A stretch of 59,231 nucleotides of DNA, the filler included, from Catajapyx aquilonaris (lineage: Eukaryota): assembly GCA_000934665.2 (NCBI GenBank). It is 2 parts of 2 records of this genome, joined end to end, with 100 filler letters (N's around TTAATTAATTAA, not from the genome) between each part and the next. Parts side by side here need not be neighbours in the genome. Positions count along the whole stretch, not along the records: positions 1 to 29,565 come from JYFJ02004772.1; 1 more part is not named here. The stretch is one strand, 5' to 3'. The stretch's first letter is position 1. Every line of letters begins with the position of its first letter. The notes below the pieces were generated by a model. That model did not search any database and was not told the DNA's origin. It saw only the letters and a program-made list of their open reading frames with translations. A program made the position numbers and the translations under genes. Shown piece after piece: positions 1 through 32,201 of the stretch.

Positions 1-1556
1 CGATCCTCCAAGGAAGACATCCGCACACTCATCACCAGCCCGCCTGGAAGTTCCCTCAGGCTGCAACTGGTCACCACACCAACGACAGATGATGATGGGA
101 AGGGATCATCTCTCCAACTGAGCAAAGTCTGCTTCTTCTGCGGGGAAGGAGGGGATCACCTGGTTCAAGAAATGGGATCATTCAGTCCAGCGGGTCGGAA
201 GAAAGGCTTCGAACACTTACACCGCCTGTTCAAAGATGAGACCAAGCACGTGAATGGGAAGGTGCTGAGGCTGAGATTCTACGTGGATATAGAGCTAGAA
301 GAAGCAAGAGAGAAGAAGAAGAAGGAAGGAGAGATCTCTATTGGGGTCTATGACAGGGCCACACTCGTCACTGAAGAACTGTTGGGTGCCATGGTGGAGA
401 CAAGTCTACAGCCTGTTAAAAGTTTGGACTTTGAATTCCAGCATCCGAACGGAACATGGGATGGCCTTACTGGCTGTCTCATCTATAACAAGTCAGACTT
501 CACTCCACTTGCATATCTCACTGAAGAAACCTTCGCAATTTTTATTCCCACGTATGTGTATGCATATGGGTATGTGACATTCCTGACCAGGCAACCAAAA
601 GGAGTCGTGTCATGGCGGGTGATATTAAGACCTTATCCTCTTCTGTTTTGGATTTTATTCTTAGCAAGCCTCATTTTGTTGTCTGTAGCCACTCATCATC
701 TCTCTCGCTGTAATCGCACAGACAAGAACCACCTGTCCCTTCCTAAATCGTCTGGATATGTCATCCGATACATTATAGAGCAGCCAATAGATTTCACCTC
801 TACACATTTTTCTATGTTCCAAGCTTCCTTTTTCTTCTTATTTGCGACAGTGATTGTCGTTGGATACAAGGCAAAGTTGGTTTCCTTTCTCACGTACCCT
901 CCGAGGGAATATTCGTACCTGCCACTATCCAGGAATTTCTTGATTCCGATTGGGAAGCCGAACTCAGCATGATTCAGTATCTCATAATGAAAAAAGCTAC
1001 TGTATTTGCTAATGACGCATTCGCTAACAAATTGATGGATAGGATGATATTAGGAGGCAGCATCCCCGAGTGCTTAGATAGAGTGGACGAAGAGAATCTC
1101 ATCTGCGGTGGACTGAACCTGCTGCTGGATCGTGAAGTGTATCGATACACCAGCAGTTCGGGTGAACTTAAGGTAAAATACGGCGAAGACAAGTTATTTC
1201 CTACATTCACTTCAGGAGCAGTACCCAGAGGACAGGTTGCACTGTTTCGTCTCTTCAACAATGTTATTCGAATGTATCTTGAGAGCGATCTCATGAACCT
1301 GTTCCTGGAGCAAGAGCTGTACATGAACCTCCTCCGAAGTCTGAAGGACATTCGGGCCGAAGAAGAGAGATACGCAGCATCGCACGTGCCAGAAGAAGTT
1401 CTGACTGTCAAGAAACTCTCTGGAATATTTAACATGTGGCTGCTTGGATTGGGCTGCGGTATGCTCATGTTCATAATGGAATTTGTGAAGCGCCCAGCAA
1501 AGAAAGGCAAAATAACTATCCACCCTATCCACATACAGGAGCCTACATCAGACTGA
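1..1556 (+). pseudogene. Divergent ionotropic receptor (IR/iGluR-like), intronless, 5' end outside window, 1-bp frameshift
   Basis: Frame 1 is open from base 1 (RSSKEDIR...SKVCFFCGEG, the same VCFFC motif as the IRs at 30-36 kb) through S1 (NGTWDGLTGCL..NKSDF), M1 (ILRPYPLLFW) and GYKAKLVSFLTYP. Frame 3 from 915 continues VPATIQEFLDSD into S2 and the last TM (LTVKKLSGIFNMWLLGL), stop at 1556. This is either a pseudogene or a sequencing error. Confidence 0.8.
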
Positions 1557-4115: not shown

Positions 4116-6446
4116 ATGGGTTGCTCTACCTCATCATCGGTTCATCCGGCCAGCACAAACGGACACGCACAAAGTTTGCCTAGGGTGAGTTTAAATCAGG
4201 TTCAAATATCATCAAGCCAAAATGCTATGAAAATTTGCGCCTATCGTAGCAGGTAGGTGTTGTGAGCAGTATTGGCGTGATCGGTACGGCAGCTGCAGCG
4301 GTACCGAACATACAGAGGGTCCTGGAGCAGCCTGGACAAGGCGCGTTTCAGCCTCAGGACCTATTCTGCGACGCCCAATTTCCGGCCCAACTATCGTCTT
4401 TGAATCTTGCTGAGACGCCTCCAGAAGAGCTGGAATGGAAGCGTCCTCAGGTCAGTACGACAACGACAACAAGCAACAAAGACAGCAACGACAAAATAAT
4501 GGAGATGCAATCAGTCACATTGGAATGATTTTGACGGATTTAATGGATTTGACTGATTTCATGGATTCGACGAATTTGACGGATTTGATTGTTTTGACGG
4601 ATTTGACGGAATCGACTAATTTGACGGATTTAATGGATTTGACTGATTTGACTATTTGACGGATTTAATGGATTTGACTGATTTAATGGATTCGACGAAT
4701 TTGACGGATTTGATTGTTTCGACGGATTTGACGGAATCGACTAATTTGACGGATTTTACTGCATCAAAACTAGTACATCCATTATGCAAATTTGGTTTAA
4801 TTATTCAGACGCACTTGCTCTAACTCCTCGAAATGGAGGTTTTGTAAGTGAGATATAAACCTATAATTACTCTCGATCGATCTGGGAACTGTGGGAAGGT
4901 CAGTAAGTCAAGTGTTTCGTAGTAATTGTCGGGAGCAAGCGCAGTACAATGCAGGCTCATTTAATGTACTTGTATTAAACGTACGGTCAAATGTTTATTG
5001 TTCGTGCTTGTATAATATTAGGAAATGTGCGAGAATCCGTCTCTGTTCGTGGATGGCAGTGCTCGTTGTGATGTGAAGCAAGGTTCTTTGGGCGACTGTT
5101 GGCTTCTGGCATCCATATCTGCCCTGGCTCAGTATCCAAGTCTGATGAACAAGGTACTGGACAAGAGACAGGTACTGATCGGACCTGGGTACGACGGATG
5201 CCTCAGGGTCCGTCTCTGGAAGTTCGGTCGCTGGAGAAGCATCCTGATAGACGACAGACTGCCGGTGGTGGAAGGCAGACTCTTTTTCGCCAACTCTGCA
5301 TTTCCTAACGAGTACTGGGCACCATTGCTGGAAAAAGCGGTTGCAAAGTACGTTAAGTACAAACAAACAAGCAGACAAATCCAATCGTTTCATATATCAC
5401 GCAGGTTTCATTCAAACTACGGCGCATTGGACGGCGGTCTCTGCTTGGAAGGACTGACCTGTCTGACTGGAGGATTGGCCGAACCTGTGGTGTTCCAGCA
5501 GACTGACCCCGAGGGCATCTTTCCTAAGGTAAGAAGCGGTCTTCAGAGCAAGGCGGTCATCACCTGCGCCAAATGGAACGAAATGGAAGGCGGAGGAGAG
5601 TCGACCGGAGACGACGGACTGGTCTCAGGTCACGCCTATTCAATCACTGGAGCCTCAGAGGTCATCCTGGCTGACCAGAGCACAGTCATGCTGGTCAGGA
5701 TAAGGAATCCTTGGGGAGACGACACAGAGTGGAAGGGAGCCTGGAGCGACGGGTATGTTATTGTTCACTATAATGGGTACGAAATAAAGTTGTTTTTTTC
5801 TGATTTAAAGGGATTCGTCGTGGGAGCAAGTGAATCAGGAAGTCCGTGAGAGGCTGGAGGCTGAGAAGGTTCGAGCAAACGGAGAGTTCTGGATGAGCGT
5901 TGAGGATTTCAGGTCAGAGTTCTCCATGATGACCATATGCAACCTGATGCCTGACCTGGACGGAGATGGTGACGGTGACCAAGGCGTGTCGGGTCAGATG
6001 GAAGGTCTTTGGGAGGAAGGCATGGAAAAGCAGTACCAGTATTTGCTTCGACTAAGACCTCTCGAAGATGATGACGACGAAGGGACTTTGTGCTGGGTAG
6101 TACTGGCACTGATGCAAGAACCAGTCAGAGGAACAGATAGAGAAAACAAAGCCATAGGTTTCAGCATATACGAGGTGAGTGTAGCAGCTCTTTTCATTGC
6201 ATATAATGACATTAATTCCAGGCTGAAGAGGACACCTGCAAACCTCTGGATAACCTGGAAGATCAGGACCATCAGTCGACAGAGCCTGAGACCATATCAG
6301 AAGTGGTCTATCGGTTCGAAATGGCTCCAGGAAACTACGTGGTTGTTCCCTTTGCCAGTGATTTGCAACCGGAAGAGAAGAGGCATTTCCTTCTTCGGGC
6401 ATATGCAGCTTCCGGTCTCAACCTTCTGCCTCTTTTGTACCACTAA
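4116..6446 (+). CDS. Atypical calpain 1 (CysPc + short C2-like domain, no EF hands), catalytic triad intact
   Basis: Exons ~4116-4184, 4250-4450, 5022-5347, 5405-5752, 5811-6174, 6222-6446 with phase-compatible GT-AG introns. Motifs: MGCSTSS start, FCDAQFP, WKRP, QGSLGDCW (Cys), IDDRLP, WAPLLEKA, GHAYS (His), RNPWG (Asn), GEFWMS, GNYVVVP, FLLRAY. Confidence 0.92.
4528..4760. repeat. 9-bp tandem repeat (TTGACGGAT-like) in calpain 1 intron 2
   Basis: Repeated ttgacggat/ttaatggat/ttgactgat units. They account for the spurious LTDLMDLTD ORF. Confidence 0.9.
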
Positions 6447-7028: not shown

Positions 7029-10000
7029 ATGGGTTGCACCACCTCTTCACTCTCTCTGGTCACCAATGGACATTTCAAGAGGTTGCACAAAAAAGTTGCA
7101 GCAGATGATGTGAATGGTACTGTGTCGGAAGCTGTACCGTGTATTGAAGAGGTTGACAAGTCAGATACAGCCACTGCAAAGGAGCTGTATTGCGACGAAG
7201 AGTTTTCAGCTGTCGAGTCCTCGATAGGAGATCTTCAAGACGAAATTCCGACAGAACCTGAATGGCGTCGTCCTCATGTACGTATATATCGGTACTGTAC
7301 CTGACACATTTTTAGAAAAAAAAAAAGTTGTCAAAAATATCCCGTTATTGTGATTTCACTCAAAACGAGCGGGTTTTCCCACTCAATTTGAGTGAAAATG
7401 ACCACTCGTTTTGAGTGGAATCTATAAGTTAGAGTGGTCGCCTTAGAAGCCAGAGTTGTTTCTTCTCTTTCAATAGGTTTCTGGGGTAAATATGTAGCAG
7501 ATTTTTTTTTATTGTTGACCCTACACTGTTTGTATTTGCATATAAGCTAAGTGTGATCGATTTATATTCACACGAACATACGATGATATACCGTAGCTTA
7601 TATCAAAAACTGTAATAAGGGGAGGGGGGCCATCTAGGGAATATTGCGAAGTACTTTAGTGTCCTCTTCATGAGTCCATTTCATTGGAAGATATTACATC
7701 AGCGATATAGCGTGTGGTCAGCAACTATTGAAATGATAGCATGTAACTAGTGGGAATGAAGCAATTACGTCAAACTACTAGGTGACCCCAAAGAATCGCA
7801 AAAATATGGTCGGGTGACATTCACGTTGACATTGTCTTTTTTCCAAACAGGAAATATGTGACAATCCGGAACTATTTGTGGAAGGAAGTGGTCGTTGCGA
7901 CGTGATGCAAGGTTTGTTGGGTGATTGTTGGATTCTGGCTGCCATGTCTGGCCTAGCTCAACATCCTCATCTGATGAACAAGGTTCTGGATCCGAAGCAG
8001 GTTCTATGTGGGCCAGATTACGACGGATGCATACGAGTCAACCTCTGGAAATATGGGCGATGGATCACAGTGGTGATCGACGACAGACTACCAGTGACTA
8101 AGACGGAAGATGCTGATGGGTACAGCTTCCTATTTTCATCGTGCGCAAGTTCAAACGAGTTCTGGGTACCGATTCTGGAAAAAGCTATCGCCAAGTAAGT
8201 ACTATAAGAATAATTGACATAATTTGGACAGGAATACTACATAAGAGGCGCAAACTTCTGTCGGCGCCTTTGATGTTCGCGTCTCTCTGTTTGGGGCCGT
8301 TGCCAAGGATGGCGGCCATCTTGAAGTGTGGGGAACGCCAACGAGGTATAAATAGGGTACAGGCAAAAATAGGGTCCGCCATCTTTGATGGTTTTGGCGG
8401 CCATGGCAACTACACGGCAAGAACACGCGCGAATCAAAGATGGCGGACCCTATTGTTGCCTGTAGGCCTACCCTATTATTATACCTCGTTGGCGTTCCCC
8501 ACACTTCAAGATGGCCGCCAGCCTTGGCAACGGCCCCAAACAGAGAGACGCGAAAATCGAATGCTTGGGCCTCTTATGTAGTATATGCTCCCTGATTTGG
8601 ATTTCATGAATGTCGCCAAATGTGTAGGTTGCACACGACTTATGCTGCTCTGAACGGAGGTGCTTGCTTGGAGGCATTGACCTTGCTGACCGGAGGAGTG
8701 TCATATCCGGTAGAGCTGGGCACTGAGGAGCCGAATGTACTGTCGGACCTGGTGACCACAGCACTTCAGGGCAAGGCTATGGTCACCTGCAGCAAAATCA
8801 ATCCAGACGAAGGAGGCGACGAGACAGAGTCCAACACTGGGCTTGTGTCCAACCACGCTTATTCGGTCACCGGTGCCACAGAGGTCACACTGTCCGACGA
8901 GAGTAGCACAGCGGTCAGCTTGGTCAGAGTACGGAACCCTTATGGCGATTCAACAGAGTGGACAGGAGCATGGAGCGATGGGTACGAAAATTGGTTCAAA
9001 AGTGTATGTATAATTGGCCTGGTCTGTGCCTCTGTCCGCGGTGAGAGGGCCATCTATGTGAGAGATATGGTACTAGGCTGCATGAACAGTCGGAGGCAGT
9101 GTTCCAAGTTTTTGCTCATAGAAAGCACTCTCTCTAAAAAAATTCGATTGAATTTTTCATTCGAAAAGAGAGCATTTTCGCAAAATGCTCTTTGTGAGTG
9201 AATTTCACTCTGCAAAGCTTTAATTTCACTCATGTCGAGTGGAAAATTACTCGGGAGAAGAATGAAAATGAGTGGAAGACTCATAAATTTTCAGGGCGTA
9301 AAAATTTTCACTCGAAATGAATGGTAATTTCACTCATCCCGAGTGGAAATTTACTCGGCTGGCGAAGAATGAAAATGAGTGGGAGACTAATTTTCAGTGA
9401 GTGGAAAATTTCCACTCGAAATGAATGGTAATTTCACTCAATATGTCGAGTGGAAAATTACTCGAGAGGAATGAAAATGAGTGGGAGACTAATAAATTCT
9501 CCGAGTGTAAAAATTTTCACTCAAAATGAATGGCAATTTCACTCATCCCGAGTGGAAAATTACTCGGCGGGAGAAGAATGAAAATGAGTGGGAGACTAAT
9601 TTCCAGTGAGTGGAAAATTTCCACTTAAAACGAATGGTAATTTTACTCAAATTGAGCGAATTTCCGACTTAAATTGAGTGAAATGTCTAATGCAAATTGA
9701 GTGAAATGTCTATGCAAATTGAGTGAAATGACCACTCAGTTTGAATGAAGATTTTTCACTCAAGTGCTCGAGTGAGTTCACTCAAAACGCACACATTTCA
9801 CTCAAAATGAATGGTCACTTTGAAAATTTGTGAGCGTTTTTCCACCCATTTTGAGTGGCATCACTTGAGTGAAAATTTCATTCAAAATGAGTGGTCATTT
9901 CACTCAATTTAAGTAGGAAATCAACTCAATTTAAGTGAAATGACCACTCATTTGGAATGATATTTTTCACTCAAGTAATCGAGTGATTTCACCCAAAACG

Positions 10001-11182
10001 AGTGCTCATTTCACTCAAAAGAAGTGGCCTTTCTCAAAATTTTCGAGCTTTTTTTTTTACCTAATGTGAGTGAAATGATAACTCGTTGTGGCTGAAATCA
10101 CTCAATATTATCTGACTGACAATTTTAAACTAAAAATGAGTGGACATTACACTCCATTTATGTAGGAAATCCACTCTCATTTTGAGTGAAAATTTGTCAC
10201 TCAAGTATTCGAGTGATTTCTCCCCATGGGGTTAACGACTTCGGTACTCCTTGGTACTCCTTGAATTTTGGTACTCCAGTGTACACTTTACAGTCGAGTG
10301 GTTAACCCCTTGTTTCACCAAAAAACGAGTGATCATTTCACCCTAATTGAATGGTCACTCTTTGAGCGTTTTCCCACTCAATTTGAGTGAAATGAGCACT
10401 CGTTTTGAGTGGAAATTTTTTACTCAAATTGAGTGGGAAAATGCTCGAATTTTTTTTAGAGTGCAGAAAGTTCTGACCAAACTATGTAATTAAACCTCAT
10501 TTTACGTTTTGAAGGGATGCGATGTGGGATGAGGTGATCCCAGAGGTTCGAAAGGCCCTGGAAGCTGAGCTGGCCATTCCGGATGGAGAGTTCTGGATGA
10601 GCATAGAGGACTTCAGGTACCATTTTTATTGCATGACCATATGCAACCTGATGCCAGACCTGGACGGAGACGGAGACGGAGACGACGTAGTGTCAGGACA
10701 GATTATGGAAGGCGTCTGGGACCAGGGTGGTCCGGATACAAACTTCCAACAATATTTGCTTCGATTGGATCCGATCTCTGAAGGAGAAACCACCTCTTTG
10801 GTCATAGCTCTGATGCAGGAACCTGTCAGAGGAACAGGTCGAGATGACAGATTCATCGGTTTTACCATTCATGAGGTACAGTACGGATTCATAATGTTGA
10901 TCGAAATATTAAGTTAGGAACAGTAAGCTCATGACATCTATTGAATTTTTGAAGGTTGAAGAAGACGTCAGCAGTCCCTTTCCTATTGACGAATTGCCTG
11001 AGCAGAAGTTTGAGAACCCGGGTCCCGCGGGTATATCCGAGCTAACTGAAAGGTACCAGTTGTCTTCCGGGTCTTACGTCGTACTTGTTATGGTTGCAGA
11101 CCTCGAACCTGAAGAGAAGAGAGGCTTCTTACTGAGGGCATATGCGTCGACTGGACTTAGCCTTACACATCTGGCATCATGA
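7029..11182 (+). CDS. Atypical calpain 2, catalytic triad intact
   Basis: Exons ~7029-7277, 7851-8194, 8628-8981, 10515-10875, 10955-11182, with the same intron positions as calpain 1 except the first. Motifs: MGCTTSS, QGLLGDCW, NHAYS, RNPYG, GEFWMS, PDLDGDGDGD, FLLRAY. Confidence 0.92.
8234..8584. mobile_element. Foldback/MITE-like insertion (~350 bp, long inverted arms) in a calpain 2 intron
   Basis: Termini atactacataagagg ... cctcttatgtagtat; internal arms (cgcgtctctctgtttggggccgttgccaagg...agggtccgccatctttgat) recur in reverse complement. The equivalent intron in calpain 1 is only 57 bp. Confidence 0.85.
9126..10463. mobile_element. Non-autonomous TIR element with CACTC termini and dense CACTCAA/TTGAGTG subterminal repeats (CACTA/EnSpm-like)
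   Basis: Left end cactctctctaaaaaaattcga, right end tcgaattttttttagagtg. The interior is built of inverted ttcactcaaa/tttgagtgaa motifs. The superfamily assignment is inferred from the termini only. Confidence 0.7.
10225..10312. mobile_element. Small hAT-like MITE nested in the CACTC element
   Basis: TIRs catggggttaacgact / agtggttaaccccttg; flanks tttctccc / tttcacca (degenerate 8-bp TSD). Homologous to the copy at 58219-58354. Confidence 0.7.
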
Positions 11183-12212: not shown

Positions 12213-15087
12213 ATGGGTTGTTCTACCTCTTCCTTAACCCTCGTTACTAATGAGCAAATCACGATGTTACCGGTACCGAACAAGGAGAGTGACACAAACA
12301 GTGTTGACGTTGCAACAACATCAGACATTCAAGACGATGAAGTGTTTGAAGACAATTGGGAAATAGAAAAGGATCTATTTTGCGACGAAGATTTTCCGGC
12401 TGACCAGTCGTCAATAGGCGAACTAGGAGAACTTCCATTTCCAGTTACGTGGTGGCGACCACACGTAAGTAAATTTTTTTAGAGTTACCACTCACTTTAA
12501 GTGAAATAATCGCTGCTTTTTGAGTGAAATCACTCTCGATCACTGGAAGGAAAAATATTTTCACTCAAAATGAGTTGTCACTTCATTTAAATTTAGTGCG
12601 GAAAAGCTGTGGGATTTTTACAGTGGCCACTCAATTTAAGTGAAATGACAACTCATTTTGAGTGGAAAACTTTCCCTCGAGTGATCGAATTATTTCACTC
12701 AAAACCAGTCGAGATGAGTCGGAAACGCTCGAAATTTTTAAGAGTGGCTACTCGTTTTCAGGGAAATGATAACTTGTTTTGAGTGAAATAACTCGACTAC
12801 TCGAGCGAAAAGTTCACTCAAATTGAGTGATTCATTTCACTTCAATTTGAGCATAAATTCCCCATTCAGATTTATCGATCACTGGAGTGATTTCGCTTAA
12901 AACGAGTGGTCATTTCACTCAAACTGAGTGGAACACAGCTCGAAAATTCTTTGAGTGAAATGACCACTCGTTTTGAGGGATTCATTTCACTTCATTTTGA
13001 GTATAAAATCCCCATTAAAATTGATCAATCACTGGAGTGATTTCACTTAAAACGAGTGGTAATTTCACTCAAACTGAGAGGAACACAGCTCGAAAATTCT
13101 TTGAGAGAAATGACCACTCGTTTTGAGTGAAATTCACTCGAGTAATCGATCACTTGAATGAAATCACTCGATGACTTGAGTGAAAGATTTCACTTAAAAT
13201 GAGCTGCCCAACATACCAACAAACTTTCTGCTTTATATGTAGAAATATGAGTGGAACAAAATGTTTTTTTTTTTCTCCTTCCAACAGGAATTGAGTGACA
13301 ATCCGGTACTAATTTCGGATGAAAGTGGTCGCTGCGATTTGAAGCAAGGTTCGTTGAGCGACTCTTGGATAATGGCTGCCATGTCTGGTCTGGCCCAATA
13401 TCCCCACTTGAAGAACAAGGTTCTGGATCCGAACCAGGTCCTGTTTGGTCCAAAGTACGATGGATCCATAAGGGTCAACCTCTGGAAATTTGGGCGATGG
13501 AAGACTGTGGTGATAGACGACAGACTGCCAGTGTTTGACTGGGACGAAACTTACTGCTTGCCATTTGCTAACTGCGCAAACACAAACGAGTTCTGGGTGC
13601 CTCTTTTGGAGAAAGCAATTGCCAAGTAAGTCAGAGCACAGTGTGAAAATCGAGTGTGCGCACCCACATTCGCGCAGCTCCATTTGTTCTGAGACAACAA
13701 CATTGCCAGAGTTACGCTCCTGTAGCACCGTCCAGGCTGCGCTAACTGTGGTGCGCCGTTGGAAACTTTCATATTTGTGATAATGTTCGTATGTTTATTC
13801 ACAGGTGGAATACGAGTTATGCTGCTTTGAACGAAGGTTTGTCATGGGAAACTCTGCCTCTTTTGACCGGAGGAGTCCAGGACATGGTGGTGCTTGGTAC
13901 TGACCCGTACCAGGTCGACCTGGACGGAATGTTGGGTCAACTGAAGACAGCGCTTGAGACCAATGCGGTCATCACCTGTCGTTATAAGGACCAGGAAAGT
14001 GAAGAAACCGAGTCACCGATTGTAGACAAAAAGAAGATTACAGGTCAGGCGTATAGGGTGACCGGTGTTTCAGAGGTCACACTGTCCGATCAGGAAAAGG
14101 TCAACCTGGTCAGAGTGTGGGATCCTTCATGGAACAGTGTCACCGAATGGAAAGGAGCATGGAGCGACGGGTAAGAAAGGCTGGTAAATCAGGTCAAAGG
14201 TCACCCTTAATAATTGTTATGTCTTTTTGAAAGGGACGAGATATGGGACAAAGTGAGCGATGAAGTTCGAAAGGACCTGGAATCCGATCTGTCCTCTCCA
14301 AACGGCGAGTTTTGGATAGGCCTCGATGATTTTGGGAATGATTTTGAGCCAGTGGTCATAAGCCACGTGGTGCCCGATCTGGACATCATTTCCGGTAAGA
14401 TCGAAGGAGTTTGGGACGAGACAGCTCCTGATTGGTGGAACCAGCAGTATTTGCTTAAAGTGGAGCCAATGGCTGCTGTGGAGACTTCCGTTATCATCAT
14501 ATCACTTATGCAAGGAGCTGTCGAAGGATCAACTCAAATGCTCAAACCCATCGGTTTTCCAACTTATAAGGTGATGCTATTATGCGATTCACGAGTCCTG
14601 GCCTGCTAGGCTCCTCCCCCGTCCTCCGCCCTCTGAAGGCGAGGTTGCCACGTCGTTGGGAGGAGGTGGGTGGAGCCTAACAGGCCAGGACTCGTGAATC
14701 GCATAATACTTAAGAACTTTTTTTAAACTAGCGCAACCTAGTGCGCACTCACACTTGCGCAATTGTTCGCTCGTTGCGCTCGTTACAAAATTAATCCATT
14801 GTGTTATTTTTTTAAAAAATATGAAAGACCTAATATCAAATTATTTGATTCAGATTGGAGGTGACACCAGCCGTACAGTTAAAGATGAATATCTGTCAGA
14901 TCTTCTTGCGTTTCCAACCCATAGTTATGTGGATTTCGATGAGGCAACCCGGAGGTTGGAGATGAAACCCGGATATTACGTAGTGATTCCTCTGGTTATG
15001 GGTCTGGAGCAAGGAGAGAAGAGAAGCTTCCTGCTTAGAGCTTACTCAGTATCTGGACTCAAAGTCAGTTTCAAACTTCTGACCTGA
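12213..15087 (+). CDS. Atypical calpain 3, predicted catalytically inactive (pseudoprotease) with intact reading frame
   Basis: Exons ~12213-12464, 13288-13625, 13805-14170, 14234-14570, 14854-15087; splice sites and phases conserved with calpain 2. Triad motifs read QGSLSDSW (C>S), GQAYR (H>Q), WDPSW (N>D). AATAAA follows the stop. Confidence 0.88.
12475..13260. repeat. CACTC/GAGTG repeat-family fragment filling calpain 3 intron 1
   Basis: Same ttcactcaaa/tttgagtgaaatgaccactc motifs as 9126-10463, including an internal tandem duplication at ~12830-13130. Confidence 0.75.
14578..14708. repeat. Short hairpin/MITE in calpain 3 last intron
   Basis: tattatgcgattcacgagtcctggcctgctaggctcc ... ggagcctaacaggccaggactcgtgaatcgcataata. 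Confidence 0.8.
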
Positions 15088-15491
15088 TCATATATATTAC
15101 AAAAGTATCAAATAAAAGTCTGAAACTGCTCACGATTGTATAACAATGTTAACAAAGTACCTAATAAGTCGACAAAGTGTTGTAAATACAGAAGATGTAC
15201 AATAGTATTAGAGAATCCCAAATTATATTTTGAATATATTGACAAAATGAGTCCGAAATTTTTATTTATTGTTCCCAGCAAGTATTGTCCCACATTTTGT
15301 TAAACTCAACTAAAAATTCATGTTTTTTTTTTTAAACGGCTGAATTTACAAACGAGGCCATTACTTTCCGGCACCGAGTCATGCAACAAAATTCAACAAA
15401 AAAAAATATTATCCTGCACAACCTGTGGCAGGATGTTATACCTTGTCTCACAACATGCATCAGACCGGTTAGTACTCATCCTTCCGCAGCC

Positions 15492-18400
15492 ATGAGAGGA
15501 CCACACTTCATCATCTCTATAGTGATCACATTGTACTTTTCGCAACAAAACAAGGTAAGTCAACTGTCCCAATTTCTGAAGCAAGTGGACCAGGGTGAAT
15601 GTCTGACAACCACTTTAGGTTGCTGCTTACGAGGATGTCCAGGGCATCCTTCCGAGACCTCCGAATTGTGGGATATCCCATGGTCATCTTCCGGATAACA
15701 AGAACCTGACAGCTCCAAAAGAGGCTTATCCTTGGGTAGTGCTTTTGGGATACGAGAGCAGCACAGGAAACACCATTTGGCCATGTCAGGGGACACTCAT
15801 TTCCTCTAAATATGTGCTGACCACTGCCCATTGCCTCAAAGCACGTGGAATGTAAGAATTTTATTTTAAAATTTATATCATTTGTAAAAAAAAAATTATA
15901 CCGTTTGCTGGCGCTGATAAACTAAGTTATTTAAAACTAGCTGAGGCACTCAAAGATGTGACTTCAGGTAAAGAGAATGATGAAAAAAACTACTCAAGAG
16001 TAATTATTCACAAGATTTTTATTGTGTAATGGTATATTTTTGCAGAAATTTGCAATTTGCACGATTGGGTGAGCAAGCTGCAGCATTTTCGGATGCTCCT
16101 CCACCTCAGAATATTCCAGTGGAAGAAGTGATTATTAACTTGAACTACCAGGCAATAGGATCAGGAAAATTTGCAAGTGACATTGGTCTCATCAGGCTTA
16201 AAGACCCTGCAAATTTCAACGGTAAGATTTTTTTTTCTATAGTATTTATGATATTATTACTCGTATCATTATTGGTGTAGACTATACTTTAAAAGCTATG
16301 GCGAAATTTTATTTTCTTTCTTATATAACTGCAGTAAGCAATCATATAATGTTGTTATTTTTATATAATTATATGCAGAGAATTTTCTGGCACCTAAAAT
16401 GTAAATATTTTATTGGCTTTTGTTATTTTTAATGTTCATTGTTATGCATATTTATTAGGGTATATCATTCAATACAATAAATGATTCAATACATTTATTT
16501 TTCACTAGAAAATTGTTAGAAATTTTCCTTGAATAATAATTATTAGTTTTTTTGGGTTGTGATGTTGCTCATTACATTATGATTATGACGGTTTATTTCA
16601 GCTACAAAGTACATATTTTTTATTATGCATTGTCGCCTGAATCCGCAGTTTACAGACCTCCCAACACATTGTATGGCATCAACACGAAATCTGATTACTT
16701 TTTGCGAAGACGAAAAATGTTGTAATGACAAATTAGGCGCCATATGCGCAAAATATTAGCGATTCAACACGACAGTTTCCCATGGCCTTGACGCTCTTCT
16801 GTATAATATAGCTAATCACTCAATAACAATTAAGTCTCGCTAACACTATATATGTTATGAAGGTCAAGAAAATCACGAAATGCTGCTTAGACCATGTGGT
16901 GCAAATCCAATATTCGCGTGCATATTTAGGTAATCGTGCTCAGCGCATCAGCCGTCGGCCGTTAATTACATGACTAATGTTTTTCCAATCAAGGTCGCAA
17001 AATAGGTTATACTGCACAAAACACACAAATGATGTTACCATCAAAAAAAATTTCAAACCCTAAAAAATGCATATTCAAGCCAAAATGCGACTCTGAAATT
17101 TTCTGAGAAAACACACGTAATTTAGAAAAATGCTAAAAGTTGAATAACCCTAACCAGGAAAAAAATAAATTATCGCGAGACCATCAGGGAAAAACCTTGA
17201 AAAACCTGTTCAACCCTGACCTTTGAAGGCCTGATTCTCCCAAAGCCAGTTGTTGGTTATCTAACTAAACTGGATTTTGTGCCATATTATTAGGTTGGCA
17301 CCAATAATATTCCTTACAGCTTCCGCATTATTTGCAAAAATTGAAGGGATGTATAGTGAACTCATATAGGTTTTATTTGGATAAAATCCTGCATGTTTTT
17401 GGATTATTTTGTGATATCAAGCAAGGAAAAATATTTTTATATATTTTTTAAAAAACATAATATTTTGTTACCGATGACTAGACTACTTTTAAAATTTTTT
17501 TGAACAGTTTGCCTTAACCAATTATTGCTAAAAGTCACTTCTCTTAATTTTTATTCGATGGCATATCTTGATTTATTTTGTGCCCTGATGTGTCAATAAT
17601 TTAATTTAAGTTTTACCGTTTGTCAAGCAGTATAAAGGTGATAATTATTTTTTTAAATAATAAATAATTACAATGAGTAATCTCGTAGCATTAAATCACC
17701 ATAACCATTATTATTATTATACAGATTTTTCTGGATTTTTTTGAAACCTATTTGTTGCAACTTTTTTGCAACATTGCAAAAAATATTATTGTCTCGCATT
17801 GCAGAGTATGTCGCTCCAGTGTGCTTAGACGTGAAAGGACGAGAAGTCCCCAAAATCCTTCCAGGAGAAAAGTTATCTGTAGCAGGCTATAAAAAAGGTT
17901 TGTATCTAACAACCATCTATAAAAGGCGCATAACAACTTATAACTACAGCAGGTTAATTTCGTAGAAGAAAAAAAAATTACTGTCATTTCAATTCGAACC
18001 AATTTTTTTTTCTATATGGTATTGCGGCAGTGTAGTTGCTGTGCGCCTGCAATTTGCTCACGGAGGTACACAACTGTACCGGATTTCCACAGAAGGTAAG
18101 GCGGACGCATCTCTACTTCACATCTGGATACGAAGCGTGGCAGAAGTGACCTGCGCACAAAACTACTCAGGGAAGCTGGAGCTCAACTTCAAGGAGATGA
18201 TGTGTCTGATGGGAGAAGAGGAGTCCAACCTGTGCAAAGGTACCTCTGGGATACCACTGATGAAGCAGGCAGGACCTTCGTCGTACCTGTACCAAGTAGG
18301 GTACGCCACACTCGGACCTGTCAACTGCGGAAAGTCGCCATCGGTCTACACAAAAGTGTCTGCCCACATGCCATGGATCCTCAGCGTCATGCGTCCATGA
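15492..18400 (+). CDS. Secreted trypsin-family (S1A) serine protease-like protein, CLIP-B/easter-like domain without a clip domain, non-canonical active site
   Basis: Exons ~15492-15554 (signal peptide), 15619-15851 (LPRPPNCG...AYPWVVLLGY...CQGTLISSKYVLTTAHC), 16046-16221 (ARLGE...SDIGLIRL), 17805-17897 (YVAPVCL...SVAGY), ~18093-18400 (MMC...LCKGTSGIPLM...CGKSPSVYTKVSAHMPWI). Confidence 0.85.
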
Positions 18401-18464: not shown

Positions 18465-19040
18465 CTGAGTGAAAATTTTTCACTAAAGTGATCGCGTGAT
18501 TTCAATCAAAACGAGTGATAATTTCACCCAAATTGAGTGGAAAACGCTCGAAATATTTTAGAGTGAACACTCATTATGAGTGAAATTGCTCGATCACTGG
18601 ACTGAAATTTTTTCATTCAAAATGAGTTGGTCATTTCACTCAAATTGAGTGGAAAACGCACGAAATATTTTAGAGTGAACACTCATTATGAGTGAAATTG
18701 CTCGATCATTTGAATGGAATTTTTTCATTCAAAATGAGTTGGTCATTTTACTCAAATTGAGTGGAAAACGCACGAAATATTTTAGAGTGAACACTCATTA
18801 TGAGTGAAATTGCTCGATCATTTGACTGAAATTTTTTCATTCAAAATGAGTTGGTCATTTCACTCAAATTGAGTGGAAAACGCTCGAAATATTTTAGAGT
18901 GAACACTCATTATGAGTGAAATTGCTCGATCATTTGAATGGAATTTTTTCATTCAAAATGAGTTGGTCATTTTACTCAAATTGAGTCGATTTACTGCTTA
19001 AATTGAGTGGAATGGCCACTCATTTTGAGTGGAAATTTTA
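18465..19040. repeat. CACTC/GAGTG family array with four tandem 112-bp units
   Basis: The unit aaaacgctcgaaatattttagagtgaacactcattatgagtg... starts at ~18541, 18653, 18765 and 18877. Confidence 0.85.
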
Positions 19041-19208
19041 TCGGTAGGCTCGCTGCCGAATTTTTGTTACTGGGTCCCATTTAAGGAAAACACATATTCC
19101 CATCATTTTTGTTACCATTTATTAAGTGTACAGCACACATATTTTTTGGGGAGATATGTATCCAATAATAAGTGTTGACATAATTTGCGTGTGTACCTAG
19201 TATATTGA

Positions 19209-20494
19209 TTACTCCATTTTAGCAAATGAGCCCATTTCGAGCGCGATTCCGTTGCTGGATTGCGGTTCAAACGCGGCCAGAATCTCCTGGAAGGTGACGG
19301 TGTCCACGTTGTTTCCCAGCATGGTCAGCACATAGAAATCGCTGAGTCTGAGGTGGTTGACCAGCTGGTCAAAGTTGAGTATGTTGTTGTACAGGCCGGT
19401 ACGATGCATCAGGAGGAAGACTCGGAACCGAGGCAGCAGGAGGATCAGTACGTGTCGTACCATGTTCAGCGCTGTGACAACAGACAGAGCAACCATCCAG
19501 CAGTACAGGATGTAGTACATCTTCTCTGCGTACGAGCTGAGGTTGATCTGGCAGAGAAACTCGATGCCCGTGACGGTACCGGAGGACCCCATCTTGTGCA
19601 GGAGGCACGTGGCCACCCTAGGAAACACCTGGTGTTCCAAAGGTGCTTCCGATACCTGACAATAACGGAGGAGAGAATCTACATGTATCATAGTATATAA
19701 GGCAAAGTTTGTTTCGTTATGTACCTGGTATGGAAACGAAAAGAAGGCGCCGGACAAGTAGTGGTCGATCAGGAAGAAGTTTCCGATCACGTTGGCGAAG
19801 TTGAGTGCCTCGCAGGCCAGGTATGAAGAAGTCAGAAGGAGGTGGTTGGAGCCGGATTCCAGAAGGTACTTGGTCAGACGACGGGCGCCGAAGTCGGTGT
19901 TGTTGTTGTCGATGTTGTTGTTGCTGTGAAACGTGGCGATCATGCTGCTGATACGTCCCTGCTCGATGTTGCTCCAGATGTAATGAGGAAGGTAAAAGAA
20001 GATTGCTGTCGAAAAGAGAGGGTGTTTGTTTGTCCTAGCTGATAGTACCACTACCTATCGAGAGTGGCAGTAGTTTGCAGAGAAGGAGGATGCGCCATCT
20101 ACCGGTTAGGCAGAATAGTGCAGTTCATACCGTGTACGAGAAGCAGGATCGGTAACCAGCTGAAGTGTCTGTTGATGACTGATCCTTCCTCGGATGTTAG
20201 TGGTCCGATCTCATCTCCAGGGTACAGAGATCCGTAGGTGTTGGCACCATGATGTGCCACCGAGTACAACGGACTGTGCCAACACCGGTTGTTCACGTAC
20301 TGCTCGCTGACACGTTCGTCGTTCTGGGCAGCACAGTTTATCGGCGATACCCAGACGAAGTACATGGACGTCAGTACGGCACACGTGGCGAACACTGCCG
20401 TGGTGACAATGTAATGCAGACGGAACACACAACCTTCAGTCATCGCAGAACGGTACCTCAACATGTCAACGTACGAAACTGAGCACTGATGCAT
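19209..20494 (-). CDS. Divergent innexin A
   Basis: Exons ~20494-20131, 20005-19725, 19655-19209. Motifs: VFRLHY TM1, PINC...NNRCW (EL1 Cys pair), HFSWLPILLLVHAIFFYLPHYIW, CEALNFANV, FPRVATC..HKMGSSG....LCQINL...EKMY, SDFYVLTMLGNNVDTVTF. The start could instead be the ATG at 20464. Confidence 0.88.
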
Positions 20495-20755
20495 CGCCGG
20501 TGGTTGTTGACTACAATGTTGCTCAGATTCTTGTACTGGGTAAACAGCAGGGAATTTTCGCATTATACTGAGCAAATATTTCGCAAACAGCGTGATCCTT
20601 TCGTACTGGTATGCTCAAAATGCTGGAATTTGCGGTATGGATCGCACACATGTTAATGGAAACATTGTTTATTATATATTCAAAATTCATATACACAGTG
20701 ATTCATACTCCGGTCGATATGATTGCGAAATACCATGCACTGCATTTTTATTGTT

Positions 20756-23596
20756 TCATTTGGCCAGAGGTGTCATCTCCAACTCGTTGCCACCATACCC
20801 GGACAACGAAGTCAGCACCTCTTGGAAGCTGATGGTATCCATATTCTTTCCCAGTAAGTACAGGACCAGGAAGTCGTCGATTCGAGTACGATGCGTCAGT
20901 TCCTGGTAGTCCAAAACGTCGCGGGACAGTCCGGTACGGTACATCAGGTAGTAGTCACGAATCGGTCTGACACTGCAGAGAAGTACGTACCATACGAGGC
21001 TGAGAGCGGTCAGAACCATAAGCAAGATGAGCCAGCCGTACAAGAACGTGTACATGGTCTCGCAGAAATGACTTATCTTGACAAAACACGGGAAGCTGTG
21101 TAACTGGACCGTACCGCTGGGACCTAACTTTGCTACAGTGCACTTGACCGTGTCCGCAAAGACTGATGGCTCTCCACTGTCCTCCTTGTCGTACATCCCT
21201 CCGAAGGTCACGAACTCACCGGACAGATAGAAGTTGATGAGAAAGAAGTTGGCCAAAGCGTTGAATAAGTTGAGTGCAGTGCATACCGCGTACGACACAA
21301 AGTACATCATGTGGTTTGAACGCGATTCTTGCAGGTACTTGGCCAGTCGACGCACACGTGTCTTCGCGTCTTTGTCCTGGTTGTACGACGTGACGATACT
21401 GCTGATTCTTCCGTTCTCCATAACTCCCCAGATGTAACGAGGTACGTAAAACAGGAAGCCTGAAAAAAAATGCAGAAAAATAATAATATTTGTTGACAAA
21501 TCAACATATTACAAAAGGCAAAGCTTGTTGCTGGTTTGTTTGTCCAAGTTCGCCATGGCAACGTGTCGCCATGGAAACGGGCCGTGTGAAGAACGGGCTC
21601 CTCTGCGACTTTACATATATATAAAAGGCAAAGTTTGTTGGCAAAGGCAAAGTTTGTTGGTTTGTTTTTCCAAGTTTCTCCATGGCAACAAGTATCCATG
21701 GCAACACGTTGCCGTGTGAAGGACGGGCTATATAGTGGGAGCGGTACAAGTAAAATGACATAAAAATACCGCATTTGATGATAGAAGCAAGCCACTTTGC
21801 ACACTTGTTCCTAACACCATAAGGTTCAATTTGACCAGCAGTACCCTCAAAATTTTACCGTAGGATTCAAAATGGCGACCATCTTTTCAAAATGGCCGAA
21901 AATATCGAAAAGTGTTACTTTTTGGGGTAGTCATGAATGCGGGGTGTCGATTCCGCATGATTTAAGGTCGCTAAACTCGAATTTGGCCATACCAAGTTGC
22001 CATCTTGAATTATTTCGGCCCCAGAGGCGCCATTTTCCAAAATGGCGGCTTTTATTGTATACACCTCGAATTGTCCTAGAAGCGAATGTGATGTGTCGAT
22101 TCCGGGTCATTTCCACATGCGAAGCTCAAATATGAACTGACCTTGGCGACATTTTGTGTCAATTAGGCCCCACAGCCGCCATTTTCCTAGATGGCGGCCT
22201 GATGTATTCTGTAATCTCGGAGCTAGTCGAAGCGGTACACAAAAATATGCTGCAAAATCTTGCAGAAAGCAAGCCACTTTGCACAGACGTTCCATAGACC
22301 AAGACGATCAATTTGACCCGCAGCACCCTGACCCCTGACCTTGTGGGGTCAAATGGAGGCCATTTTTGAAAAAGAAAGTCATATATTTTTTGGTAAATTC
22401 CCAATTGCCTCTCCATGGCAATGTTGGTGTCATTTCCGCATATTTCGGGGTCGACAAGTCGATTGGTAACATGCCGGAGGTCATAAGGTCACTAGTTTGT
22501 GATCTATGACCTCCATTTTGAAATTACCCTACTGGGCTCTATCTAATGGTATTTGCGACTAAAAGGTGGCATGTGAGGTATAGGTATCGTTTAGATATAA
22601 TTTGATGTCATTGAAACCGAAAACGACAATAAAAATTCGGAACCATGCATCCAGTGACCTGTGGGGCGCCATATTGGGTTTCAACTTATACCTTTTGGTG
22701 GGGATGATTGTGCACCCGTAAGCGAATAGTATTAGACGTGTTTGGTAACCTTGCAGCATAATAATTCGAGGTCGCTAAGACGATTGGTCATATTCAGAAG
22801 GTCAGAAGGTCACTAGTTTGTGACCTATGGCCGCCATTTTGAAATTATCCTATCGGGAAATGTCTAAAGGTATTTGCATATGATGTGTGGCTTGTGAGGT
22901 GTCGATTACATATAATTTGCTGTCACTGAAACCAAAATATGCACTAAGATTTGACTTGCCTCTCTTGTTGCTGCATCTTCATTTGCATTTCTTATACAAT
23001 TGAGAGGGCATGGACGCCTGTGTGGTCCGAAAAGGATGAGATCTGGCCAGTTTGTCGAGCCCTCGATAGGTGCGGATGCGCCTCAAAATGCGACACAGTG
23101 CGCTGCAATTGCATGAGGGAGTCATTGCCATGCCCTCTCAAATGAAATGCAAACGAAGCTGCAGCAACAAGAGGCAAGTCAAATCTTAGTGCATATCATG
23201 CACTTTTTGTGCGACTTCTCAGATTCTAATATTCTTCTATAGCTTGTTGCATAATTTTTTAACAAATAATAAAAAATTAATTATTTTAAACGTCAGATAT
23301 AATAATTAATTACCATGAACGACCAGAAGAAAAGGCAGCCTATGGTAGTGCGTCGGATTAAAAACAGGACCGGGACCGAATTTTGTTGACCGAATGTTCC
23401 AGCAGTAGTTGTCGAGAGCATCACGTGACAACGGCGTATCGACGTTTCCGATGCATGACACTTTGGTGTCAAGGGTCAAGTAGACCAGGGAGGTCACCAG
23501 GGAGCAGATGAAAAATATGGCAGTTGTCACGCAGGAGTGGAGACGAAACACGCTGCCTGTTATGGTCGGACGAAACTTGAAGCACGCAAAGGCCAT
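20756..23596 (-). CDS. Divergent innexin B (two coding exons)
   Basis: Exon 1 23596-23314 (MAFACFKFRPTITGSVFRLHSC...VSC...NYCW...HYHRLPFLLVVH); exon 2 21459-20756 (GFLFYVPRYIWGVMENGRI...KCTVAKLGPSG....PC...DDFLVLYLLGKNMDTISF). The intron is a compatible phase-1 GT-AG intron. Confidence 0.88.
21505..21725. repeat. CCATGGCAAC-rich minisatellite at the 3' end of the innexin B intron
   Basis: Units of aaaggcaaagtttgttg...ccaagtt..ccatggcaac...ccgtgtgaa. A longer version occurs at 29020-29530. Confidence 0.8.
22937..23196. mobile_element. MITE-like element with ~70-bp inverted arms
   Basis: atatgcactaagatttgacttgcctctcttgttgctgca... / ...tgcagcaacaagaggcaagtcaaatcttagtgcatat. Confidence 0.8.
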
Positions 23597-25136
23597 CCTA
23601 TATACAAAATAATTTAATAATATATTATATAGTAACAAAGAAAACAAACAAACAAACAAACAAACAGGATTACCTGAATCGGTACCGACACTTGGTTAAC
23701 TGATGGAAGTGTTATTAATCGAGTGGCTTATATTATGCAGAAAAAAACTGGTTTGTTCTGGGTTTTATTTGTTGTTAGATCGTATATAGGAAAAGGATGC
23801 GGTAAGGTAACGGATGTAACTTACTCACAGTTTGTAAACTATAATAATTGTCGTCAGTATCGTATGACCAATAGGCCGCAACCGCAATGTTTGATTTTTC
23901 CTATGGATTTGTCAGGTTATATCCGGCAATAATGGTTTCAATGCACTACTGTACTGACGCACTTTGATAGAATTGAGATAATTAATTTTATCTAGGAAAT
24001 AATCGTCGCATTGCATGTTCAGAAGATATTTGTCGCCAATCCGTATCTGCAATAATGTTACCTAGGACATTTTATTCTCTGGGACAACATACTGCGACAC
24101 TCACCTAAGGTTAACCGTCCCAAGGGAAACATATATTATGTGCTGCATAGAACGACCTTGCGTTTAATTCCAAGAATCAGATGATCAGTAATAATATTGT
24201 TTCCATCAGGAGACCCGCGTAATTGAATTGTGCAATATGTAATATGCACCGCAATATTGAGTCGTCTTTGAGCAAAAATCCGATGATGTGAATGCATTCA
24301 TCCATTACTCACGAAACATGTCGGGTAAGACACTCAATTCATTCGCATTTAAATAATGAACTTGAGGGGCCACAACCCTGAAGACACAATTAATTGCAAA
24401 AAAAATAAATCTACCACTGAATTTTAAAATATTTATATCTCATGGACTTTTACATAAATTGCTACACTTTGGCGTACAGTATTAAATTATTTTTAGCGAT
24501 GTTATTTATAAACAAATAAAAATGTGCCAACTCTGTTTATTTAGCAAGCAGTACCAGTGTTGGCACTGGCACTGCTAAGTTAGCAGTAACTAGCAGTGGG
24601 ACGAAAATCCCACCAATTGTTACGAGTCCTGAGTGGATCGAGTGATTTCACTCAAAACGAGTGATCATTTCGCTCAAATTGAGTGGAAAACGTTCGAAAT
24701 ATTTTAGAGTGAACACTCATTATAAGTCAAATTGCTCTATCACTTGACTGGAATTTCTCATTCAAAATGAGTTGGTCATTTCACTCAAATTGAGTGGAAA
24801 ACGCTCGAAATATTTTAGAGTGAACACTCATTATGAGTGAAATTTCTCGATCACTTGACATTTTTCATTCAAAATAAGTTGGTCATTTTACTCAAATTGA
24901 GTCGATTTACTGCTTAAATTGAGTGGAATGGCCACTCATTTTGAGTGGAAATTTTATTGGTGGGCTCGCTGCCGAATTTTTGTTACTGCGTCCCATTTAA
25001 GGAAAAACACATATTCCCATCATTTTTGGCACCATTTATTAAGTGTACTTAATGTTACAGCACACATATTTTTTGGGGGGATATGTATCCAATAATAAGT
25101 GTTGACATAATTTGCGTGTGTACCTTAGTATAATGA

Positions 25137-25320
25137 TTACTCCATTTTAGCAAATGAGCCCATTTCGAGCGCGAATCCGTTGCTGGATTGCGGTTCAAAC
25201 GCGGCCAGAATCTCCTGGAAGGTGACGGTGTCCACGTTGTTTCCCGTCATGGTCATCACGTAGAAATCGCTGAGTCTGAGGTGGTTGACCAGCTGGTCAA
25301 AGTTGAGTATGTTGTTGTAC
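25137..25320 (-). pseudogene. Truncated duplicate of the innexin A 3' end
   Basis: Near-identical to 19209-19392, together with its 3' flank and repeat array (24640-25136 vs 18495-19208). Homology stops abruptly where a repeat element begins at 25320. Confidence 0.9.
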
Positions 25321-27574
25321 TCTGTAAAATATTTTGAGTGAAAAATCGCTCAAAAATTGAGCAATTATGTTAATTACTCGATTTGAGTAGTTTATTTTCA
25401 AGGGGAATGTGAGTACTACCCACTCAAATGCATTCACATTTAACTCAACGGTCGAGTGAATTATCCGGGATTATCACTCAAATTTTTTTGCACTCCTTTA
25501 GAGTTCTTTTCCATTCAATTAGAGTTTGGCCGCGTCAATGATACGTGCAAGAGGGTTAGGGTGCCGCAGTTGCTATAATTACATCCATTTTTGTTCCATT
25601 GTTTGTGTGACAAAATATGTACACATGTGTACTGCTTGGGAGAGTGTGTTAGTTGTAGTGTTAGCAAGGGAGGTACTGAGCAGCACAAATTCTAGGAAAA
25701 CGTAAGCACTATTCGGCATTATCAGAGATCCGCCATGTTTAGTCCGAGTCGGAGGTGGACAGTGTTGCGTCATTCTCGACCACTGCCCCTGTTGGCTATT
25801 GCGGACTATTGCATCATCCACCATATTTCGTGATCCGGCCTGCAATCACTTACACCATGGAAGAGCTTGGAGTAGCAGGGTTGAGGTGCTACAGTCTCGA
25901 GCCGGACCGGGATATCCCGAAAGAAGTGTTGCAAAAACTAGCAGGTGAGTTGTATGAATTTGAAGTGATGTTGGTAATGGGCATTATCATATATAGGGCA
26001 GATTGCACGCCAGCTTGGACACTTTTGACCGCTTTCGACGGCCCATATTATTGACCCTAATATAGACCTGGTGTAACTCAAAACTGTGATTTTGACAAAC
26101 CACCCTCCAAATGAACAACTGTAAAAAAAAAAGTGAGACAATGCTTTTTAAAACGTGAATTAGGTAGAAAAAAAGGGGCAAAACTGTGATGTTGACACAT
26201 CCTCAAATTGAACAGCTGTAAAAAATGTTAGGCAATGATAATAAACTTCTTGTGTGAATTAGGGGTCTCAATCACTTCCGGACCACTGTGCCCCACCTAT
26301 CGGGGTACAGTGGACCATTTGCAGGGGGTCGCTTCTAAATTTTTTTTAAAGCCAAAAGGATGGCACTGCCTGTGAATATAGTAGGGACTTATATTACCAA
26401 GGAGTATCTCCACCATGCCTGAAAATATGGGGTGTGTAGGTATAACAGGTAGGTATATAAAAATTCAAATGTGCAAAAGTGGTCTCCCCTACTACGTATT
26501 GTGGGATTTATGATATGGAAATGAGGCCCAGGGCTACCCATGAATAGTTATTTGGTTGCATAAAATAATGATCTGAACATTTAATAAGTCTTGAATAATA
26601 AGTGTTTAATAAGGATGTTCCCACTTCCATTCATTTATGATCCAGTTGGGTATTGTCACATTTATGTTACTTATAATTTGATTCCTTTTTTAAAATTATC
26701 TTGAACAGTACTATTGTGGTCTTTGATAGGGAAAGGAGCCCCAGGGCTACTCATGAACATCAGTTATTTGGTTGTATAAATAATGTGAACATTTAAGTAT
26801 TATTGTCACATTTATGTTACCGGTACTTATAATTTGATTAATTGTTTTGACTTCCTTGAACAGTACTATTGTGGTCTTTGATATATGGAAGACCACAATG
26901 TAGTACTCCTCAAGAAAGTAAAAAAAATTTAATCCAATAATTATAAAATCCATGTTTTTGACTTTCTTGAACAATACTATTGTGGTCTTTGATACGGAAA
27001 GGAGCCCCAGGGCTCATGAAGAGTTATTTGGTTGTATAAATGTAAATAATATGAATATTTAATAAATGGTATTTGTCTATTTATGTGTTGTATTTAATTG
27101 CTGCTAAGAATTCATACAGCACATTTTATAGTGTTGTATATATGGCAAGACTGCTGCAGTATTGCTATTTTTGATGAACGTGGCCCATTTTCGAGTTAAA
27201 CAATTATAAGCGCTATGATGGAGAAAATAACATGTTTATCTTAATGAACCTTTCGTAGTGATACTGCAACAATTCTTAGTATTGTAGGAAAAAGGTCAGG
27301 GGTAGGATCGCACAAAATTCGAGTGAAGGTAAATCACTCAAATTTGAGGTCTTGAGAATACTCAAATTGAGAAGAATTTATACTCAAATTGAGAAGAATT
27401 TATACTCAAATGGAGTCACATAGTGCTCAAACTGATTCAGGTAATGCTCACATTTTGAGCGACATAAAAGTGCTCAAGTAAACGACTCAAATTGATTGCT
27501 TCCAATTTTAAGGTGAAGGTTGAGTGAAAAATCGCTCAAATGGGGCTAAAAACCACTCAAAGAAATTTACAGAG
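25320..27574. mobile_element. ~2.25-kb TIR element with CACTCAA subterminal repeats
   Basis: Left end ctctgtaaaatattttgagtg matches the reverse complement of right end cactcaaagaaatttacagag. ctcaaa/ttgag repeats cluster near both ends. No transposase ORF was recognised. Confidence 0.6.
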
Positions 27575-31771: not shown

Positions 31772-32201
31772 AATGACTTCAAATGCTGATCTTTACAACC
31801 ACCACCCACACTTGCGGTATTAACCTCGACACTACGAGAATGTGTCACAAATACTGCGTTAGTACCATTTCGTATCGAATAATCGACGGTGTCGGCTACT
31901 GGTGGACGTGTGGGTGCATGCTTCTTTGTCATTACAGCTAACGTCGGTGTTTGTAACAAAGGGACTTCTGATGTCAACACCACCTTGGTTCTAGGAATTT
32001 ATATCCTTCACCAAAAACAACAAAAGAAATTCCACGTATGATATGTTTGTTGACAGGGTCTTTGAACATATTTGAGTCAGGCATATATATACCTGTATTC
32101 CATTAATGGTTCACCGTCGTTGCAGAAGAAATATATCGAATGTGACACAGTGGGCCATATCATTATTAAGTTACAGACATCAATAGCATAAAATGTGTCT
32201 G

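Follow-up and report, generated by a model that had tools for sequence, protein, structure and literature searches.

A local tandem duplicate among Catajapyx aquilonaris calpains, devoid of the catalytic triad, with frame and fold under purifying selection

When a gene of a protease family encodes none of the residues needed for catalysis, is it a copy in decay, or a protein kept for something other than proteolysis? This question is raised by the last of three calpain copies (g1, g2 and g3) in a 59,231-nucleotide stretch of DNA from Catajapyx aquilonaris (assembly GCA_000934665.2), hereafter the window. The three follow one another in the same orientation, on the plus strand. Each protein is roughly 510 residues long and contains the Peptidase_C2 and Calpain_III domains; the genes have four introns in common, in position and phase, and g1 has one extra intron. 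The original prediction saw in g3 an independently derived, selected, non-proteolytic calpain, acting as a scaffold, a substrate trap or a regulator of two active neighbours.

The g3 gene (12213-15087) has five exons that splice into 1527 nt encoding 508 aa, with an open frame, one stop at its end and GT-AG boundaries at 4/4 introns (phases 0, 2, 2, 0). Exon 1 (12213..12464) specifies a Met-Gly-Cys start, Ser at position 6, an acidic N-terminal region (16 Asp or Glu in the first 60 residues) and the beginning of CysPc; exon 2 (13288..13625) encodes the PC1 subdomain (Pfam Peptidase_C2, E=1.6e-27) and exon 3 (13805..14170) the PC2 subdomain (Pfam, E=7.4e-18); CysPc ends and CBSW begins in exon 4 (14234..14570); and exon 5 (14854..15087) holds the end of CBSW (Pfam Calpain_III, E=2.3e-4) and the stop, with AATAAA following at about 15111. 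This spliced model bears out the earlier description of a gene free of stops and frameshifts, with its splice sites and Met-Gly-Cys start preserved, and the motifs IDDRLP, EFWVPLLEKA, WKGAWSD and GEFW are all found in it. We infer that the gene is expressed. Its Met-Gly-Cys-x-x-Ser start is a predicted myristoyl/palmitoyl anchor, in agreement with the consensus for myristoylation with adjacent palmitoylation. Membership of the calpain superfamily (peptidase C2) is clear, with PF00648 above cut-off in exons 2 and 3 and further matches to calpain-1, -2 and -3 structures. The architecture is CysPc plus CBSW with no EF-hand region behind it: a Pfam scan gave no match to an EF-family domain in the exons covered, and the stop follows directly upon CBSW in g1, g2 and g3. 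The C-terminal penta-EF-hand domain of classical calpains (CalpA/B/C) is thus missing from g3.

A young, internally deleted MITE of 127 bp occupies positions 14580..14706 in g3 intron 4, within a TA target duplication; its 50-nt arms are 92% complementary, and the exon 4 donor site is intact. The family has many copies of 96-100% identity in the genome, full copies measuring about 325-370 bp, and TA flanks were seen in 4/5 copies examined, the fifth being unmatched by the pattern. A separate family of short GAGTG/CACTC-rich repeats (9190-10460, 12470-13200, 18470-19040 and 24640-24950) fills g2 intron 3, g3 intron 1 and other non-coding stretches. Directly downstream of g3 lies a trypsin-family gene (about 15490-18400) that seems to have the Ser as well as the His and Asp motifs, but in which Thr rather than Asp precedes the Ser and the usual activation motif is missing; it is possibly a serine protease homologue. 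The window also holds an innexin tandem array on the minus strand (19200-29300), two of whose members, at 20756-21508 and 28266-29009, are near duplicates, and an array of single-exon ionotropic-receptor-like genes (30190-36560, minus strand, and 747-1556, plus strand), one of which, at 30190-31800, is broken up among several frames.

In place of the Cys-His-Asn triad of active calpains, g3 has Ser-Gln-Asp. The catalytic Cys is replaced by Ser110 (TCT, 13363..13365), the His by Gln278 (CAG, 14046..14048) and the Asn by Asp303 (GAT, 14121..14123), all on the plus strand; the three replacements had been predicted at exactly these codons, and alignment to calpain-1 structures confirmed the register. 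With nine invariant residues around the triad altered together, neither a sequencing nor an assembly error is a plausible cause; no allelic copy of g3 was found in the genome. The protein is presumably inactive as a protease.

The changes extend well beyond the triad. Across 76 near-invariant columns, g3 matches the calpain consensus at 59, as against 69/76 for g1 and 69/76 for g2. It is altered at 12 of the 66 columns where g1 and g2 agree, and these changes are concentrated near the triad (9/17 columns, against 3/49 elsewhere; p=1e-4), a bias that is retained when the triad itself is set aside (6/14 within five residues of it, against 3/49; Fisher p=0.0025). Among the substitutions in g3 are Gly>Glu96, Gly>Ser108 and Leu>Met113 in exon 2, and Gly>Glu207, Gly-Leu>Lys-Lys 273-274, Arg>Trp302 and Gly>Asn307 in exon 3; Gly>Glu207, one of the three distant changes, opens a glycine-rich stretch beside the cleft. 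Ser305 is a one-residue insertion ahead of a conserved Trp which, in calpains, stacks on the catalytic His (PMC4057710). Judged from these alignments, the geometry of the cleft appears to have been remodelled. A 21-nt in-frame deletion after 14384 (exon 4) has also taken out a DxDxDG loop, a possible extra Ca2+ site. The description of g3 as otherwise intact therefore stands for the reading frame and has to be given up for the sequence, in view of the cleft changes, the insertion and the deleted loop. In a site no longer under constraint, all three triad residues would be lost by chance in 16-38% of cases on a branch of this length, and positive selection on them need not be invoked.

Other functional positions are preserved. 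The oxyanion Gln104 is kept, as are Gly208 and Gly277 (equivalent to calpain-1 glycines 208 and 271), the Ca2+ site 1 residues Arg99, Asp101 and Glu185, the site 2 residues Glu311 and Asp318, and Glu344 in exon 4, where Asn342 is the same as in g1. By alignment, with ligands and residue roles taken from a description of calpain-1 (PMC4057710), g3 thus keeps the equivalents of Asp106, Glu185, Glu302, Asp309 and Glu333, plus Arg104; the Asp331 position is Asn, as in g1, and the Gly101 position is Glu.

The neighbours differ in how safely they can be called active. The oldest paralog of the array, g1 (4116-6446, plus strand, 509 aa), has a complete canonical active site (TGT/CAC/AAT), and here the prediction of an active neighbour is secure. 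The sister of g3, g2 (7029-11182, plus strand, 511 aa), has an intact triad (TGT/CAC/AAC) and is a less safe case: the conserved Trp that follows the catalytic Asn is Tyr here (8935-8943), the Gly preceding the His is Asn (8851-8853), and the protein may be an attenuated protease, since the replaced Trp is described as critical for activity. At the protein level g3 is 48% identical to g2 and 45% to g1. Between g2 and g3, dS is smallest in exon 2 (0.52; exons 3-5 give 0.75-1.2), which may reflect gene conversion from g2. A conserved g2/g3 promoter was also considered and set aside, the short common upstream blocks being too weak to count. Parts of g1 and g2 seem to be present as second haplotypes on two short contigs, L004 (C16199) and L033 (C13938), respectively, with about 2-4% substitutions, many intron indels and one substitution each in the exon parts.

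Where did g3 come from? A maximum-likelihood tree of the CysPc core (25 rows) unites g1, g2 and g3 with support of 100/100 and places g2 and g3 as sisters (98/95), and a quick tree of 48 rows, what was left of 66 after 18 redundant or fragmentary ones had been dropped, agrees (99 and 94). In the 25-row tree the g3 branch (0.62) is twice that of g2 (0.28). The genome holds two other dead calpains. L006 (C420:16068-16691, on another contig than g3) has Arg/Val/Cys at the triad and is presumably CalpC-like, its Arg and Val matching those of CalpC. In a tree without any named CalpC, a clade of g3 with L006 was rejected (p-AU 1.2e-6), and with it the candidacy of g3 as a CalpC ortholog; a single clade of g3 and all four other dead calpains of the tree was rejected as well (p-AU 4e-69), so that its triad loss is independent. 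As the original prediction had it, then, g3 is an independently derived dead calpain, and it is a local tandem duplicate. L007 (C217:107700-108403), the second dead calpain, reads Ala/His/Cys at the triad and clusters at 99/95 with two proteins that are likewise short of catalytic residues, P0046 from a mite and P0022 from a clam; together they may represent an ancient protostome clade of dead calpains. Word-based and full HMMER searches for orthologs of g3 gave nothing above 49% identity (best 47-49%), and among candidate short relatives of exon 3 none was found (0/3 scored). Nor did the database matches include any named crustacean CalpM. Identity to the best database proteins is at most 34% over most of the length, and 36% in one partial match.

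The array does have a wider family. A PDxDxDG motif is present in 19/313 proteins compared, from crustaceans, a tick, a cockroach, molluscs, an annelid, a nemertean, a starfish and a hemichordate; 16/19 start with Met-Gly, 10 of them with Met-Gly-Cys. Tigriopus P0004, Hyalella P0006, Penaeus P0175, the tick protein P0087, the molluscan proteins and Ptychodera P0009 are members, annotated merely as "calpain-A-like" or "clp-1-like"; P0062 and P0171 are among the further members, and the loop sits between CysPc and CBSW. The array, the motif proteins, P0007 and P0185 are set apart from classical calpains with support of 100/99 in the 25-row tree, a branch that reaches only 80 in the 48-row quick tree. 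With these proteins the array shares a CysPc plus CBSW architecture, Met-Gly(-Cys) starts and, in g1 and g2, the linker motif itself; g3 has the architecture and the start, and, its linker being deleted, is a derived member by descent. The array differs in its long branch and its 29-38% full-length identity, and g3 in having neither triad nor loop, whereas Cys, His and Asn are kept in 19/19 motif proteins. This EF-less, Met-Gly-starting subfamily is bilaterian-wide and apparently under-described: no paper that gives it a name turned up in a search of titles and abstract openings, although such a negative says little.

Whether g3 is constrained depends on where one looks. In a branch model over 489 codons dN/dS was 0.18 for g1, 0.28 for g2 and 0.80 for g3 (dS 0.35), estimates that come from three sequences and leave the division of dS between g2 and g3 uncertain. 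The g3 value exceeds those of g1 and g2 (p=8e-6) and is indistinguishable from 1 in the free model (p=0.54); only with the dS of g2 and g3 set equal, a model that fits almost as well (log-likelihood 0.5 lower), does it fall below 1 (0.67, p=0.004). Paralogs range over 0.18-0.35, against 0.67-0.80 for the g3 branch, and taken alone the whole-gene value would favour decay. The signal of selection comes instead from site classes and indels. We sorted 439 codons into classes according to how conserved they are among 56 reference calpains, a set without the window genes, own-genome loci, two dead proteins and one truncated protein. In the free model, g3 dN/dS was 1.35 at invariant codons near the triad (within five residues of it), 0.13 at invariant codons elsewhere, 0.49 at mid-conserved and 1.38 at variable codons; with equal dS the values were 1.02, 0.10, 0.37 and 1.04. 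The near and far classes were drawn after the changes had been seen, and two windows and two thresholds agreed. At the 58 invariant codons away from the triad dN/dS=1 is rejected under either model (p=0.008, free; p=1e-10, equal dS), as it is at the 124 mid-conserved codons with equal dS (p=3e-6), and structural invariants are constrained alike in g3 (0.10) and g2 (0.08, equal dS). The rates at the 239 variable codons (1.0-1.4) are explained as well by relaxation as by adaptation. A model in which g3 was selected like g2 and then became neutral was worse than free site classes (p=0.001), with a neutral share of about zero.

Indels tell the same story: the exons of g2 and g3 differ by 11, every one of them with a length divisible by three, while 13/14 gaps between presumed allelic intron copies in the same genome, in repeat-rich introns, have lengths that are not. 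In simulations of neutral evolution, frame, start and splice sites survived together in fewer than 2% of runs at a divergence of 0.05; survival judged by stops and splice sites alone was 22% at 0.02 and below 2% at 0.05. The g3 branch has a dS of 0.3-0.4. The frame and fold of g3 are under purifying selection. To that extent the prediction of a selected gene is sustained, though a dN/dS near 1, which the prediction itself had named as counting against it, is in part what the whole-gene value of 0.80 shows.

How does g3 compare with dead calpains already described? CAPN6 of mammals carries a C2 domain, and g3, unlike it, ends after CBSW. Dead calpains are common, 344 having been catalogued, and CAPN6 and CLPR-1 to -4 of C. 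elegans resemble g3 as inactive calpains derived from active paralogs (PMC3315469), although these sequences are outside the trees used here; CAPN6 stabilises microtubules (PMC3315469). Drosophila CalpC and L006 have, like g3, lost the whole triad, but L006 did so with other residues, on a different contig and, the joint clade being rejected, apart from g3, and CalpC is of the classical type and single-copy across insects (PMC11387712). A close parallel is Rp-CalpA/B2 of Rhodnius prolixus, which arose by clade-specific duplication, lacks all three active-site residues and EF-hands, and is required for embryonic patterning, its knockdown giving an embryonic phenotype (PMC11387712); such triad-null genes can therefore be functional. 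The same study counts at least three origins of dead CalpA/B in insects, places Rp-CalpA/B2 in CalpA/B and reports that its active-site surroundings are conserved (PMC11387712), whereas g3 belongs to the Met-Gly-starting PDxDxDG subfamily and has a seemingly remodelled cleft; the Rhodnius sequence is outside our trees. Among trypanosome calpains, some of which are described as non-proteolytic (PMC7912814), CAP5.5 is N-terminally myristoylated and palmitoylated and plays a structural role at the membrane skeleton (PMC13317235). It resembles g3 in coming from a calpain-like, mostly non-enzymatic family and in its acylation, only predicted in g3; being of unrelated origin, it is a functional analogue at most.

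We consider it probable that g3 is a functional pseudoprotease of some sort. In the history that we favour, an EF-hand-less calpain bearing an N-terminal acylation motif was duplicated in tandem, and the copy that became g3 split off from the g2 lineage. Proteolysis being left to g1 and g2, the active-site cleft of g3 would have been freed and reshaped; its reading frame, its CysPc-CBSW fold, its Gly2/Cys3 motif and the acidic ligands at both core Ca2+ sites would have been maintained by selection. The product may work as a lipid-anchored, Ca2+-responsive, non-proteolytic adaptor at the membrane or cortex, binding partners through its altered surfaces. This would be the simplest function to call on the fold, the core Ca2+ sites and the anchor, all of which are kept, and to do without the cleft, which is free to change, and we would give a membrane-tethered adaptor of this kind about even chances. 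A more ambitious version, in which g3 is the first dead member of an N-acylated EF-less subfamily, still young, with cleft and surfaces being actively rebuilt into a new binding site and a two-Ca2+ switch retained as a membrane-tethered calcium sensor, strikes us as rather improbable. The common N-terminal motif and architecture of the paralogs would also suit a decoy or regulator of g1 and g2, sharing their anchor and competing for docking sites, exosite-bound substrates or inhibitors, and Drosophila CalpC is reported to interact with CalpA and CalpB (PMC11387712); g3, however, has no penta-EF domain for dimerisation, and its variable sites, which presumably lie on the surface, have changed relative to g2 without restraint, the opposite of what one expects of a mimic, so we regard this as unlikely, if the least so of the alternatives to an adaptor.

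The suggestion of a substrate trap, holding calpain substrates in the cleft and leaving them uncut, loses ground with the remodelling of the cleft. In its favour, all three replacements in the triad are conservative and need a single step each, and g3 keeps Gln104, Gly208, Gly277, Ala279 and Trp306, whose calpain-1 equivalents touch inhibitor peptides (PMC4057710); but 9/17 near-triad invariants are altered, several radically (Gly-Leu>Lys-Lys, Arg>Trp), Gly>Glu207 and the insertion before the Trp are added to these, near-triad dN/dS is 1.0-1.35, and the conservation around the active site reported for dead Rhodnius calpains (PMC11387712) is not seen in g3. We think a trap improbable. Somewhat less so is a gene that was long functional and very recently became dispensable, or persists as a weakly constrained leftover: whole-gene dN/dS does not differ from 1 in the free model, g3 has the lowest GC of the three copies (0.48, against 0.51 and 0.53) and a branch double that of g2, and a young MITE sits 8 nt from a donor site. 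Yet the frame and indel tests leave room for a very short neutral period only, and the structural invariants show the same constraint as those of g2, so decay of this kind is doubtful. Ser110 and Asp303 are residue types of serine-hydrolase triads, the oxyanion Gln is kept, and triad substitutions do not always abolish activity according to a review (PMC7912814); g3 might on these grounds still be an enzyme with a serine nucleophile. Against this, Gln at the His position cannot serve as general base by established chemistry, Cys>Ser by itself is used to inactivate calpains 1 and 2, and the active site evolves as if free, which together make such an enzyme barely credible. An anchored adaptor, which we infer would be acylated and bind Ca2+, is the reading we prefer.

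Lineage-specific, EF-less, triad-null calpains have already been published, in the form of Rhodnius CalpA/B2, and g3 adds another; one more dead calpain leaves the general picture unchanged. What this locus offers is a clean natural experiment: next to its active relatives stands a young triad-null copy in which constraint can be mapped site by site, with the cleft released and the fold, the Ca2+ ligands and the predicted lipid anchor retained. It also points to a seemingly under-described subfamily of calpains with acylation motifs across bilaterians. If g3 were indeed a membrane-tethered calcium sensor, then g1, g2 and g3 would form a graded series, active, attenuated and dead, in which the origin of a pseudoenzyme could be studied.
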